64,000 nucleotides of DNA from Escherichia coli (GTDB taxonomy: Bacteria; Pseudomonadota; Gammaproteobacteria; Enterobacterales; Enterobacteriaceae), in the NCBI RefSeq assembly GCF_030013205.1, contig NZ_CP122648.1; one strand, 5' to 3'. The position numbers are program-made. Positions 9,001-27,000 of this stretch are shown piece after piece (position 1 is the stretch's first letter; each line of letters opens with the position of its first letter).

Positions 9001-12000
9001 TTGTTAAGGCACTTAGCGGGTTTGTTGGTTTTGCGGTTGAACATCCCTGGCTTTTTGGGGCCGCAGTACTTGCTGGACCATCGAGAGTTGGTGCTGTGGC
9101 AGCCACAACGACCGGAGTTGCCGCCCGTGTTGTTGGTGGAAGTCTTCTTGGGGCTACAGCCGGAACAGTAGCTGGATTGGCTATTCCTACAAATGACACA
9201 CCTACCACCAGTGAGGAAATGAAAGGGCTGGAGGGGCGTTTCAACTTTGATTATTTTAACGAAGTGCAGGAGTGGCAAAAAAACAATCCGGGTAAGGTCT
9301 GGCCTGGAGGATTGCAGGGATTTTCAAATCAAGTAAACAGATCTGCATATTTATCCAGAGGGATCAGGAATAACAATCCCGGAAATCTTAATTTCGCAGG
9401 ACAAAAAGGGGCTACCCTGGAATCGGGGCCAAATGCCCGTTTTGCCAGCTTCCCGACGATGCTGGAAGGCATTGCCGCCTTAGATCGGCAGGTAATGCTA
9501 TACCTGAAACGCGGCAAAAATACGATTGATCAGATTATTGATATTTATGCCCCTTCATCTGATGGAAATAACACATCGTCCTATAAAAGCTATCTCTCTC
9601 AGTACACCGGATTAGGTGTTAAGGAGAAAATCGATGGTTCTAATTTTGAGGTCATGAAAAAGCTAATTCAGGGCATTATTAACCATGAAAATGGTGCTGC
9701 CGCTAAAGCTGTAAGTGTTGAAGATGTGATCCGGGCGCTGGCTATGAATCGTGGGATTGTCCCTGCAGCAGGAAACAATGATCAGAACGTTAAGTTGGAA
9801 ATTGTTCGGAACGCTGGTGCCGATTACTTCGCGCAACTAATTGGTGCTCAACGGTTCCTGGGATGATTTAAATACACGCGCTTTCCGGCGCATTAATACA
9901 GTCTGAGGGGAAGTGTCATGTTTATGAGCAAGGCAGAATATGCCAAACACAAAGGCGTAAGCCGCCAGACAGTTTACGACTGGATCGAGAAAGGCGAAGT
10001 GATCATGTCTGGCAAAAAAATTGATGTGGAAGCGACAGAGCAGCGGAACAGCCCACCAGCACAGGGAAAAGATACCGTTTCTGAAATGTGGCCAGAGAGA
10101 ACGCTGGAAATGACGTGGGGCGAGTTCTGGAAAGCAGTTAAGGCCAGAGACGGTAAAATCCCTGCACCAGTAACGGACAATGACATACAGCAGCGTGTAC
10201 AGGATGCAGCCGGGGAACTATGCTGTGAAGTGCAATTTCTTGATGATGGTGCTATCTGCCTTGAGGATTATGCTGGGCAATATTACTTTGAGCAGTATGA
10301 TTTTCGGGAAAATGCCAGGCTGGCAATTCGTATGCTGCGTTGTGAGCTCTGCTATGTTGCAGGTGATTGTCCCGATGAGCTGGATAACTGGAGTGAAGCC
10401 GGACTAAACGCCCTGGCTGAGTGGGAAAAATCAGGCCATCAATGACCTCAAAAAGTGTCAAGTTGAGCAGCTTGCCAGGTTGACACTTTACACTCTGAAC
10501 GCGAAAAAGTGTCAACCTCGCTGTAAGCCCCGCCATTACTGGCCTTTCGCCAGATTTACCACGTCAAAAAGCCGAAAAAATCGCGAAAAGTGTCAAGTTG
10601 CCATGCTTAGAAATGCTAAGGTTTGATAAGGTTTTTCGCGAAAAAGTGTCAAGTGTGTCAACCTGCGATGTTAAGATTTGTTAAGGTCTTAAGCCGGAAA
10701 GTGTCAACCAGCCCCCTAAGATTTCCTAAGGTGTAAACCATGACCATCACCGAAGCCGATTTGCTGGAGATGATCCGCAGCATTGCCGGAATCAAACAAC
10801 CAGCAAGCAAAATTAACAGGTGTTCAGCGCCTGTTTCCGTTGTGCTGCAGCAGGAACGCCACCAGCATGATGATGTGAGGCCGTATCAGTGGCGGAAACC
10901 GGACAGGCCGCGACGGTGAGCGGAACGTTCGGTAAGGCTACAGCCAAGCCAAACATTAAGCCTACGGGTAACCCTTCGAAGGGGCTTTAAAGGGGAGATG
11001 ATTATCCTTACCAGTTGATAAACAAGCAAACCTCAAATTTGAGGTTTGTATCTGCCTGACTTATTTTTGTGCTAAGTTGTTGATATATCCGACGACACAA
11101 ATTTGCGTTCTGTGGCTGGTGGTGGCGAGTTACGACCGATCATTTCCTTCCTGGCAGGTTACATCCTGCTGCTCAACTACTACGGTAGCCACTACGATTA
11201 ACTACGCGATGCCGATATGGGGATTCCCATATCGGTTTATCCGTGATCATCCACCAGCTTGATCACGGTTAACAGGGGATGTGTAATCCCCAAGCGAGTG
11301 ATAAATGTGTATAGAAATGTGTATAGAATTTATTTTAGAACTCGCGAATGCGCCTTTATTACTGGCCTTGTGGCTTGTTGTATTGTTCCCTTCGCCCGCT
11401 CCAGAATCTCCCCAGGTGGAGAAGACTAAAAAAGTCTTCTCTGTCAGCAACTTAAACAGTTACCTATTTAATTTGCTTAGGAGTTCTACCATTGTGATCC
11501 GCCCTTAGTAACTGTCACGTTAAGTTACTCGGTGAGATGACAGTATAACCTAACGTTGGCGGCAGTTGCACCTCTCACACCGCGATAGCACAACGTGAAG
11601 ATAAAGCCCATCCTGGCATTGTAATGTCATCGACAGACTGAACACACGCATTTAAGCCCGATGTGCGGCCTTGTGGCTGCGTAAACAGGTTTATGGTGAT
11701 ATTGGTCCTTGCAAACCATATGCAAGCTCTATCAGCGTTTCAGCCACGCTCCCAACGGGTACACGGTTATCCTGATAAGGTGTGATCTTTCTGACAATCT
11801 GATGAAGTCGCTACGCTCCCGCTTGTTGCTGTATCACCAACGGGGCTTTATGGTTTCTATTGTCTATAATAATCTCACAATTCCCCTGCATGAGGTTGAT
11901 ATGACTGTTAGCTACAAGATTACTTATGAGCATAGAGACGGTGATCAAATTAGAATGGAAGAGGTTTTATTCCATTCAGAGCATGAACCAACAAAAGATG

Positions 12001-24000: not shown

Positions 24001-27000
24001 TAATCATCACTGTGGGGCGGTTTAGCCCCCTTAAATAAGGATTACAAATTATGGCAATGGGTCCGTTAACCATTGGTCGCCCGACTGAGGCGAAAATCAA
24101 CAGCACAAGCAACGATAGCAACGGTAGAACAACCAAAGGGGGTAACGGCTTTGCGATCATTACCTCTAATCTCGGCAGTGGTGCAAATGCTGCTTACAAT
24201 GACTACCAGGCATTATCATTTGATAGCGTGGAATCGACGAAAGTTAGCAGAAATGCGGACGTTACAAGCTATGCCGTCGAATCAGGATCAGAAGTTAGTG
24301 ATCATGTTCAAATACGGAATAACAAGTTCACATTACAAGGGCGTATCTCTGAAACCGTATTGAAGCTCAATCCCGATATGATTAAGAATGCGGGAATTAA
24401 CGGCAATCGACGTATGCTTATGCTTGAATACCTAAATCAGTTGATGGACAGTCGCCAACCTTTCCTACTTGTCACTGAGTTAAAAAATTATGACAACGTT
24501 GTGTTAGTTGGCATGTCTTACGAAGAAGAAGCAAGCGAAAGCCTATTGTTTACTCTTGATTTTGAGCAAATCCGTCTTGTCTCTAAAGCAACTACAAGCG
24601 CAATTGCGGTAAAAACAGCACCAAATAAATCTGTAGGAGGTCAGGTTAAAATGCAGGTAAATACAACAGAACAGAAAAATCAAAAAAGCCCAGGGCAAGA
24701 CGTTGTAACGCCAGTATTTAAACAATAGCCTTAAACACCTATGAAACGCTCTATAACGAGATAATCATAAAAGAGGCATCAATCTATATTGAAGCCTCTT
24801 TATTACGTCTATGGCGTTGTTTTACGCCTTAAAATCAATATTTAATTCATATCTTACTAATTCTACATATTCAGCTAATTCTGGAATGCTTGCCCCTTGT
24901 GAGTAGGTGCGAAAGGCTTCTGTTTTGGCTTTTTGCTCAGTGTGGCCCGTAATACTGCCGATCCTGGTCTCGCTAACTCCGGCACGATCAAGACAAGTGA
25001 TAAACATCCCGCGCAAGCTGTGAAAGCATTGTCTATCTGTAGCGATTGGCAAGACGCTACGACGTAAACGTGAGAATGCTTGAGAATAGAACGGGCCTTT
25101 CTTGCCGTCGATTCTTTTTACTTTGTTCGAGTGAGGGAACAAATATTCACCATAATTATGATTTAAATATTCATCGACAATAATCGATAGTCTCGAATGT
25201 ATCGGAACGTGTCTGATCCCTGCTTTAGTCTTACTCTTGCTGATATAAAAACAGCGTATTCCTTCCACAGTTACAACCTCTGACTTTTTCAGGCTTGCCA
25301 GTTCGTCTAATCTGCATCCTGAAAACAAGCCCATTAAAATAATATTTCTGATCTCCGGCTCCGCTGCATCAAGTAGCTTTTGCATTTGTTCAGGTGTAAA
25401 CGGTTGATAACTCTCGATTGTGCGACGTGCTTCGAGGTTATGACCGTGAAAAGGGTTACTGTCTGGTATTCCGTCATAACGGCGTTTAGCAAATTCATAG
25501 AGCGATCCTAAGCATGTAAGCCAGTTTTGACGAGATTGATCGGCTGCTCCTCGTTGCTTCTGGTCATCTAAGAATACTGTTACAAGCCGTCTGCCTATTT
25601 TCTCAATATGAATATCATCTTTCTGAATGCTTTGTAAAAATAGCTCAACGGCCCTTGCTGATTTCTGTAGTGTTGAGTATGAACGACGCTCTCTGTAGCA
25701 TTCGGCGTATTCGTCACGTATTAAGCATAGGGAAGGCGATGCATAACCGCGTTTTACGGCTCTTTGCGTGTTTTTATTGGCCCTTGCCTCTGAATGTAAG
25801 AATTCAATAGCTTTTTGTAACCTCCTTTCGGGGTTATCAGGATTATGTTTCCGCTTTAGTTCCTCCCATTCTAATAACAGATGGTTTCTGAATCTTCTCG
25901 CCTCATTCAGATCTCGTGTAGATGTGCTTTTTCTCCACAACTTGTAAGGGTAAAGATGGCGTAAGTATTTAGGAACAAAAATCTGAAACATCCAGATCCC
26001 ATCTTTTCTCTTAAATAAGTATGCTTGGCTCTTGATCGACACGATAATGATCCTCTATTATCACGTAATCAGTTACCTATGATTGATCACAAAATCTTTA
26101 TTTTACAGCAGGTTATTATGGGTTTCCTCGATTCCCTTCGCCCGCTCCAATTTATCTTCACCTCATCAACCTGCCATTTTTGTTGTATCTGATTTTCTAT
26201 ATTATCTTAATTCAATCGCTTCAGACTTTTCGCAATCGCCGTAATACTTCCCCATTTTTTTGTAAATAAAAGCGTTTACGCAATGCAATCCATTTGTAAC
26301 AACCCAGGTAAAATACCTTATTTTCAAGTTGTTAAATAAGTGGTTATCTACGCTTTTAACAAACGATTGATGGAATCTTTTATGAAAGGGAAATCTACAT
26401 TAACTCTTCTGCTCGCTGGTATATTTTCATGCGGCACATGCCAGGCGACAGGGGCAGAAGTGACGAGTGAATCTGTATTTAACATTCTTAATTCCACGGG
26501 GGCAGCAACTGATAAAAGTTATTTATCGTTAAATCCAGATAAGTATCCTAATTATCGTCTTCTGATTCACTCAGCCAAATTAAAAAATGAAATAAAGAGC
26601 CACTATACCAAAGACGAAATTCAAGGATTGTTAACATTAACAGAAAATACACGAAAGTTAACGTTGACGGAGAAACCCTGGGGAACATTTATTCTTGCTT
26701 CTACTTTCGAAGATGACAAAACAGCGGCAGAAACCCACTATGATGCTGTCTGGCTGAGGGATAGTTTATGGGGCTATATGGCATTAGTATCAGATCAAGG
26801 AAATAGTGTAGCCGCAAAAAAGGTTCTGCTCACTCTGTGGGATTATATGTCTACGCCCGACCAGATTAAGCGGATGCAGGACGTCATTAGCAACCCAAAA
26901 CGACTGGATGGTATTCCTGGGCAAATGAATGCTGTGCATATCCGATTTGACAGCAACTCCCCCGTGATGGCAGATGTGCAGGAAGAAGGCAAGCCGCAGC

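Follow-up and report, generated by a model that had tools for sequence, protein, structure and literature searches.

Tandem arrays of integrated elements at tRNA genes are well described, and a general mechanism for their formation has been presented (Mageeney et al., 2020, PMC7192596); tandems of two phage-inducible chromosomal islands (PICIs) have been reported as well (PMC10111431). In such arrays, an intact tRNA gene marks one end, copies of its 3′ end separate the units and follow the last of them, every unit brings its own integrase, and other genomes contain the units singly. All of these features are found at glyU, a known integration hotspot, in Escherichia coli ETEC4079 (pig, Belgium), where two elements, referred to below as island 1 and island 2, lie in tandem. 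The window, i.e. the whole stretch of DNA analyzed, comprises 64 kb of the chromosome of this strain (NZ_CP122643.1, 959999-1023998). As a phenomenon the array is therefore ordinary, and it does not differ in principle from the known arrays. Specific to it are two unrelated integrases with overlapping 18- and 22-nt cores and the existence of both unit orders at glyU, one in the window and the other in L010 (IMG/VR uncultivated virus genome 2698536371_000009). What the locus may add is an inferred order of events, the use of one 18-nt target by two unrelated integrases, and the membership of island 2 in a possibly undescribed satellite-like family.

Among described phage satellites, the Gram-negative PICIs are defined, and separated from prophages, by a layout of four zones termed Integration, Bro, Replication, and Late (PMC10111431). 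[quoted passage not shown]

Structure of the Tandem Array

The array is delimited by the following features (window coordinates unless stated otherwise):

L002 (same genome) 42081-42154, 2,846 bp left of the window: glyU, intact tRNA-Gly gene with anticodon CCC, between actS and an integrase gene
NZ_CP122643.1 957154-971401, + strand: island 1, 14,248 bp, starting directly behind glyU at a distance of 2,845 bp from the left end of the window; part within the window 1..11403
11386..11403, + strand: internal attachment (att) site, in which attR of island 1 and attL of island 2 are fused; last 18 nt of glyU
11404..26149, + strand: island 2, 14,746 bp, or 13,410 bp without the insertion sequence (IS) IS2 and its target duplication
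26128..26149, + strand: attR of island 2, last 22 nt of glyU, with the left edge of ETT2 (ATTTATCTTC..., the original chromosomal flank) next to it

The window contains exactly two copies of the sequence TTCCCTTCGCCCGCTCCA (11386-11403 and 26132-26149), and both lie on the + strand; the sequence was matched in 0 of 100 shuffles even with two mismatches allowed, which corresponds to a chance expectation of zero. An alignment with the authentic glyU from this genome showed that the first copy corresponds exactly to the 18 nt at the 3′ end of the tRNA, and the second, in its extended form, to the final 22 nt. On the cloverleaf, the 18-nt block runs from the last two bases of the T-loop through the 3′ strands of the T-stem and the acceptor stem to the discriminator base and CCA, and the 22-nt block begins at the second T-loop base and also continues to CCA. 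ARAGORN found no tRNA gene in the window, and hence neither copy is joined to a 5′ tRNA half. On its left the internal att site is bordered by island 1, and on its right the sequence (GAATCTCCCC...) is identical to the junction between glyU and island 2 in strain ETEC4067.

A first-pass annotation of the window had already described a tRNA 3′ end that is present twice in tRNA orientation, with the second copy inside a 22-nt match and both copies lacking the 5′ half, and each of these points is borne out. It had also predicted that the left island runs out of the window toward an intact tRNA gene, which was indeed located upstream together with its adjoining integrase gene, and that a right island of about 14.7 kb ends with its own integrase, whose gene lies 89 bp from the second repeat. 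The proposed location between glyU and ETT2 is likewise correct. ETT2, a type III secretion cluster, has been reported to adjoin glyU and to have a glucoamylase-like gene at its end (PMC2808357). The complete order is glyU, island 1, the 18-nt repeat, island 2, the 22-nt repeat, a GH15/ygeQ-like gene directly after that repeat, and the remainder of ETT2. A third glyU repeat beyond ETT2 was not found even when degenerate copies were considered, and ETT2 was therefore rejected as a third unit of the array.

Occupancy of glyU and Order of Arrival

The array very probably arose when two elements integrated site-specifically, in separate events, at the 3′ end of glyU. The attP of each element would carry a copy of the tRNA 3′ end (18 nt in island 1, 22 nt in island 2), so that insertion by a tyrosine integrase would rebuild a complete tRNA at the left junction and turn the displaced end into a direct repeat at the right one. 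Island 2, a phage-related element of 13.4 kb with a distal, inward-facing integrase, would have arrived first and already have been resident in the lineage when island 1 inserted at its tRNA-proximal attL, the sole site that still had a whole tRNA. The predicted attP junctions are ...GGCTTGTTGTATTG/TTCCCTTCGCCCGCTCCA/AACAAACATTTCTC... for island 1 and ...GGGTTTCCTCGA/TTCCCTTCGCCCGCTCCA/GAATCTCCCCAGG... for island 2.

Serial integration, as proposed in the first-pass annotation, is supported by the occupancy states found in a collection of 5426 complete E. coli genomes. An 800-nt probe for the empty site, consisting of the 400 nt ending at glyU joined to the sequence from window position 26150 onward, matched strain CFSAN018748 with 800/800 identities and was covered to at least 80% in 3392 genomes including K-12. 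In ETEC4067 and more than 20 other genomes, among them pig enterotoxigenic E. coli (ETEC) and human Shiga toxin-producing E. coli, glyU is joined directly to island 2, and the match to the window begins exactly at the repeat at position 11386. Genes of the island 1 integrase type lie beside tRNA-Gly in approximately 1090 genomes. The junction between island 1 and island 2 was found in only two genomes of the collection, ETEC4079 and ETEC1748. Whereas island 2 of ETEC4079 is 100.000% identical to that of ETEC4067 over 13.4 kb, apart from IS2, the island 1 copies of ETEC4079 and ETEC1748 are only about 97.7% identical where they can be aligned; ETEC1748 carries extra genes, and the region from the Icd-like gene to the primase gene is partly non-homologous and partly only 94–96% identical. 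This degree of divergence, together with the non-homologous replication segments, indicates that the variants arrived separately, each in front of an island 2 that was already resident, and since two different island 1 variants precede the same island 2, island 1 would be the later of the two elements. The simplest history suggested by these comparisons is a resident island 2 and at least two arrivals of island 1 variants, each at the tRNA-proximal position.

Several observations weigh against this scenario or complicate it. The final structure taken alone fits the opposite sequence of events, and only the comparison of sister strains favors an early island 2. The same picture would result if the other strains had precisely lost island 1, although such a history would be less parsimonious. 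In ETEC1748, the internal glyU repeat (L012 16100-16117) has a 1-nt deletion (CCC to CC), but the same assembly also contains a frameshifted actS, and the att site may thus be unmutated and the deletion a sequencing error in the homopolymer. Finally, the exact attP junctions of both islands were absent from IMG/VR, and that of island 2 was also absent from the metagenomes of the Joint Genome Institute (JGI).

If island 1 had been the first element at glyU and island 2 had then entered its distal attR, any crossover within the shared 18 nt would have yielded the junctions observed here. Moreover, L010 contains an island-2-like element, a 23-nt glyU repeat (13084-13106), and then an island-1-like PICI, i.e., the two families in reverse order, which shows that either can lie next to the tRNA; this arrangement was not found among the 5426 complete genomes. 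For the window itself such a history is nevertheless very unlikely, as in more than 10 sister strains a 100% identical island 2 lies directly at glyU and island 1 is missing, the two strains that do possess island 1 carry different variants of it, and the distal repeat retains merely 18–22 nt of the tRNA compared to the whole tRNA at the proximal site. A composite island acquired in one step could also be suggested by the adjacency of the two parts and by their AT content, which in both exceeds that of the core genome; the internal repeat would then be a fossil or have been duplicated by chance. This explanation is hardly conceivable: genomes with island 2 only or with an island-1-type integrase only demonstrate that each half exists alone at glyU, each half has its own intact integrase, and the internal repeat coincides exactly with the boundary seen in the island-2-only strains, with the junction itself being confined to the two genomes named above. 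Two independent integrations, with island 2 preceding island 1, thus remain the preferred history of the locus. Both islands may still be able to excise, and they would depend on helper phages.

A 36-nt exact copy of the glyU attR, composed of 18 nt of the tRNA end and 18 nt of the ETT2-side flank, was also found on plasmid pF1053-2 (NZ_OY757951.1 21425-21460; L019 7426-7461). It is the one examined among 58 plasmid places matched by the empty-site probe and sits between IS1 and a DUF6998 gene in an IS-rich region, where it probably represents an island end captured by IS activity.

Integrases and Candidate Arm-Type Sites

The integrases and the short repeated motifs around the att cores are:

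Beside glyU, left of the window, + strand: Int1, integrase of island 1, 404 aa, full length, P4-type tyrosine integrase (phrog_1, 7e-79)
24822..26042, - strand: Int2, integrase of island 2, 406 aa, full length, reading into island 2, divergent tyrosine recombinase (phrog_1, 1e-37)
11309..11326, + strand: candidate arm-type site of island 1, doubled motif GTATAGAAATGTGTATAG, 60 nt left of the core
NZ_CP122643.1 957271-957288: second copy of this site, GTATAGTAATGCGTATAG, 117 nt right of the core at the left end of the island, upstream of int
11457..11467, + strand: candidate arm-type site of island 2, CAGTTACCTAT, 53 nt right of the core
26070..26080, + strand: partner of the island 2 site, CAGTTACCTAT, 51 nt left of the core

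Int1 and Int2 share 19% sequence identity (E 0.23) and nothing beyond the common fold, and the sequences thus identify them as unrelated. Among the integrases of island 2 relatives, that of the glyU variant in L010 is 63% identical to Int2 and one at thrW 33% identical; these alignments show the R, HxxR, H, and Y motifs. In L010, the Int2-type gene and an Int1-type gene (80% identical) flank the 23-nt glyU repeat. Together with the many Int1-type genes beside tRNA-Gly, this indicates that both lineages are dedicated to glyU, and two unrelated integrase lineages have converged on the same 18 nt of this gene. Each integrase would catalyze the recombination of its own island.

The doubled motif GTATAG-N-AATG-N-GTATAG is present in two copies in the whole glyU array, of which one lies in the window, and the copies are placed as they would be in a circular attP. 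A similar doubled motif flanks the attP cores of related PICIs (PMC10111431). By analogy, the doubled motif and CAGTTACCTAT are candidate arm-type sites of Int1 and Int2, respectively.

Island 1, Classed as a PICI-Type Satellite

Based on the genome annotation and on matches in PHROGs and Pfam, island 1 contains these genes:

Left of the window: P4-type integrase, 265-aa open reading frame (ORF), AlpA-like helix-turn-helix (HTH) protein, and the start of AntA/B
To 763: AntA/B (phrog_5817, 1.6e-41)
1548-1751: Icd-like gene
2116-2406: DUF4222 gene
2403-4208: primase (phrog_864, 2.7e-155)
4593-5123: ProQ/FinO
5120-5407: PerC
5822-6400: NUDIX
6465-7148: DUF2213, weak match to head maturation protease
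7145-7762: 205-aa ORF
7827-9866: 679-aa protein with a lytic transglycosylase domain (PDB match for this domain)
9918-10445: 175-aa protein with an N-terminal HTH, weakly similar to small terminase or excisionase

This gene layout fits the four-zone scheme outlined above, and island 1 is accordingly regarded as a PICI-type satellite. The integrase faces inward and is accompanied by an AlpA/HTH_17 regulator, a 65-aa protein that matches the excisionase and regulator families phrog_2790 and phrog_66; directly 3′ of the integrase gene lies the int-alpA RNA motif RF02996 of Rfam (45.5 bits at a gathering score of 35.8; L002 43578-43645, corresponding to 958577-958644 of the chromosome record). An Ant/Bro zone and a replication zone with the primase follow. 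No homologue under the name of Rpp or Ppi was identified in the late zone.

The closest match to island 1 are the Gram-negative PICIs of the EcCICFT073 type, with which it shares its size of 14.2 kb, the inward-facing integrase with AlpA, the Bro/Ant, primase, and late zones, and the doubled short motif flanking the attP core. It differs from them in that its late zone (the NUDIX, DUF2213, 205-aa, 679-aa, and 175-aa proteins) is without an assigned role in packaging redirection. The P4-type integrase at a tRNA 3′ end, AlpA, the Icd-like gene, and the alpha-like primase are reminiscent of satellite phage P4. However, none of the island 1 proteins matched the psu, sid, or delta families, a search of window positions 1-30000 with Rfam at the gathering threshold retrieved nothing, including no C4 or isrK, and around glyU only the tRNA and the int-alpA RNA were detected. 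Classification as a P4-like satellite was rejected on the grounds that homologues of psu, sid, and delta and the CI RNA are missing. The helper of island 1 is probably a temperate phage.

Island 2, an Element with Homologues in Virulent Myoviruses

Apart from its integrase, island 2 consists of accessory genes, two ORF-poor stretches, an early operon, and a structural module:

12141-12461, - strand: YecR-family lipoprotein (cargo/accessory)
13114-13665, - strand: Hin/Pin-type serine DNA invertase (cargo/accessory; phrog_125, 5e-62)
13666..15357: 1.7-kb region with no ORF above 46 aa
15358..17815, + strand: early operon of small ORFs and a 226-aa HTH protein
15783-16463: 226-aa HTH protein, weakly similar to replication initiators
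17816-18807: second ORF-poor stretch, no ORF above 46 aa, with 17-nt inverted repeats at 17836-17852 and 18788-18804
18808..24728, + strand: structural module, in the order 69-aa ORF, 124-aa ORF, capsid, 65-aa ORF, tape-measure-like, Dit-like
19408-20436, + strand: major capsid protein (full-length Pfam Phage_cap_E, 2.6e-17)
20823-24003, + strand: tape-measure-like gene for a 614-aa protein, split by IS2
22631..23961, + strand: IS2, 1,331 bp, inside the tape-measure-like gene, with a 5-bp target duplication at 22626-22630 and 23962-23966
24051-24728, + strand: Dit-like tail-tube initiator (Pfam Dit_like, 1.7e-27)

The three recognizable structural proteins all found their PDB matches in phage phi92: the capsid protein in Phi92_gp124 (1.2e-8), the tape-measure-like protein in Phi92_gp134 (1.1e-18), and the Dit-like protein in Phi92_gp135 (7.4e-54). 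In phage phAPEC8, their counterparts are the major head protein gp114 (about 25% identity), the tape measure gp104 (about 29%, with 50% over the first 34 residues), and gp103 (53%), and the three genes have the same relative order in both. Phages of the phi92/phAPEC8 type are virulent myoviruses of approximately 148 kb that belong to the Stephanstirmvirinae. On the level of sequence similarity, the structural proteins of island 2 thus point to one lineage of virulent phages. The PHROGs match within the structural module was phrog_16051, and NCBIfam gave no names for the core proteins of the island. Neither PHROGs nor NCBIfam revealed portal, terminase, lysis, sheath, tube, protease, primase, or alpA genes in island 2, and PADLOC returned nothing meaningful for ten island proteins.

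The ORF-free region at 13666-15357 contains imperfect, iteron-like 44-nt repeats (14218-14261 and 14273-14316) and an inverted repeat (14432-14449 and 14488-14505) and is a candidate regulatory, origin, or packaging region. The stretch at 17816-18807 was considered as a segment switched by the island 2 invertase, an idea set aside since the stretch lacks conservation in the divergent relative L013. No Rfam family matched either region.

Core sequences of island 2 were found in mosaic form in approximately 736 of the 5426 genomes. Some relatives, including those of O104:H4, are integrated at thrW with the same polarity and a swapped integrase. In E. coli E16 (L013, NZ_CP119726.1, 4815-21769), thrW harbors a tandem array of its own, in which an island-2-type element with its integrase is directly followed by a second integrase and a unit encoding a retron-like reverse transcriptase and a primase-like gene. 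The island-2-like element of L010 has the same gene order as island 2 and a 59% identical capsid protein.

Variants of the 614-aa protein with 85% identity were also detected on stand-alone contigs of 13.2–13.8 kb in a dozen Logan assemblies and one assembly at NCBI. Three of them (L015, L016, and L017; Logan SRR31140684 and ERR5014346, and contig CATKKX010000006.1 of NCBI GCA_949767545.1) represent free circular replicons of about 13.6 kb, whose sequences are circularly permuted relative to each other at about 95% identity. Two of the contigs overlap by 30 nt at their ends, as we would expect of a circle assembled with k=31. The circles share nine genes with island 2, among them the 615-aa gene (85% on the amino acid level), the Dit-like gene (79%), and four ORFs of the early operon. 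They encode neither an integrase nor an invertase, replace the 226-aa protein of island 2 by a 489-aa protein (phrog_2467) without assigned function, and carry in addition an Imm_superinfect gene and a 2-kb noncoding stretch. A full-length match to L017 was obtained neither in PLSDB nor in the phage collection. Because the same gene set recurs, also in free circular relatives, island 2 appears to be the integrative form of a compact and conserved element family rather than a random prophage remnant.

Tentatively, these sequence data may be read as evidence of an undescribed family of satellites (or minimal viruses) of about 13.5 kb in Escherichia and Shigella, whose members would either integrate at glyU or thrW by interchangeable integrases or persist as integrase-less free circles, and which might parasitize phi92/phAPEC8-type (Stephanstirmvirinae) myoviruses by using their own homologues of capsid, tape-measure, and tube-initiator proteins to build or redirect particles. 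The helper of island 2 would then probably be a virulent myovirus of this type. In a literature search of incomplete coverage, satellites of phi92/phAPEC8-type phages were not described, and nothing relevant was retrieved for DUF2213 with satellites, PICI with thrW, or satellites with tape-measure or Dit genes. Like the capsid-forming PICIs (cfPICIs), island 2 is an element of about 13 kb with its own HK97-fold major capsid protein, but it lacks portal, protease, terminase, head-tail adaptor, alpA, and primase genes and instead possesses the tape-measure-like and Dit-like tail genes, and its homologues occur in virulent myoviruses and not in temperate siphoviruses. The label cfPICI was therefore rejected, the capsid gene being present without portal, terminase, and protease genes. 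Island 2 resembles PLE and PICMI in being small and integrated and in carrying phage-related genes that point to a lytic helper lineage; it differs from them in its host, in its gene content with capsid, tape-measure, and tube-initiator homologues, and in the additional existence of integrase-less free circles.

A caveat is that IS2 disrupts the tape-measure-like gene, so that this copy of island 2 may no longer complete a life cycle; the insertion is restricted to ETEC4079 and absent from the sister strains. As IS elements interrupt island-2-type elements in several strains, and just three virion genes are recognizable without any terminase, portal, lysis, or sheath/tube genes, island 2 could be imagined as a decayed prophage remnant without a life cycle of its own, with the repeats as relics of the former integration of a larger phage. 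This is distinctly unlikely given that its compact set of genes is found again in the same order in the many genomes mentioned above, at two tRNA sites, with swapped but intact integrases and in a relative as divergent as that of L010, and that nine of the genes also exist on integrase-less circles. Furthermore, parts of the ORF-free region are 77–80% identical in L013 compared to 66–73% for coding genes. A random remnant would not show conservation of this kind. Since satellites commonly act as defense systems and the structural homologues point to a single virulent phage lineage, island 2 might instead be chiefly a defense or decoy island, whose proteins poison the assembly of phi92/phAPEC8-type phages while the island itself is not packaged. 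Such a role seems unlikely, though not negligibly so: no known defense model was matched by the proteins tested, and the free circular relatives and the swapping of integrases argue for horizontal spread. It would also overlap with the interpretation of island 2 as a satellite rather than exclude it.

The ETT2 Edge

At the glyU-proximal edge of ETT2, a small toxin gene of the GhoT/OrtT family (28058-28237) is flanked by the GH15 gene and the first ETT2 regulator. Within ETT2, a second IS2 and an IS1 are found at approximately 41030-42260 and 53900-54600. ETT2 is partly decayed in this strain, as indicated by these IS insertions and by frameshifts in the genes for the needle-length protein (SpaN/EivJ) and a YscQ-family protein.

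Implications

The glyU array of ETEC4079 is an example of serial integration at a tRNA hotspot for which all occupancy states exist in public genomes. Beyond the first-pass annotation, it has become apparent that the two integrases are unrelated, that the order of arrival can be inferred, and that the right island belongs to an unusual element family. For genome annotation, the array defines the island boundaries beside ETT2, and it provides a natural test of which att site is chosen by a newcomer. If island 2 is indeed a satellite of phi92/phAPEC8-type lytic phages, it would represent the first system of its kind in E. coli. Phages of this type are popular candidates for phage therapy against avian pathogenic E. 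coli, ETEC, and extraintestinal pathogenic E. coli. With members in about one seventh of the complete E. coli genomes, the island 2 family could affect both phage susceptibility and gene transfer in this species.

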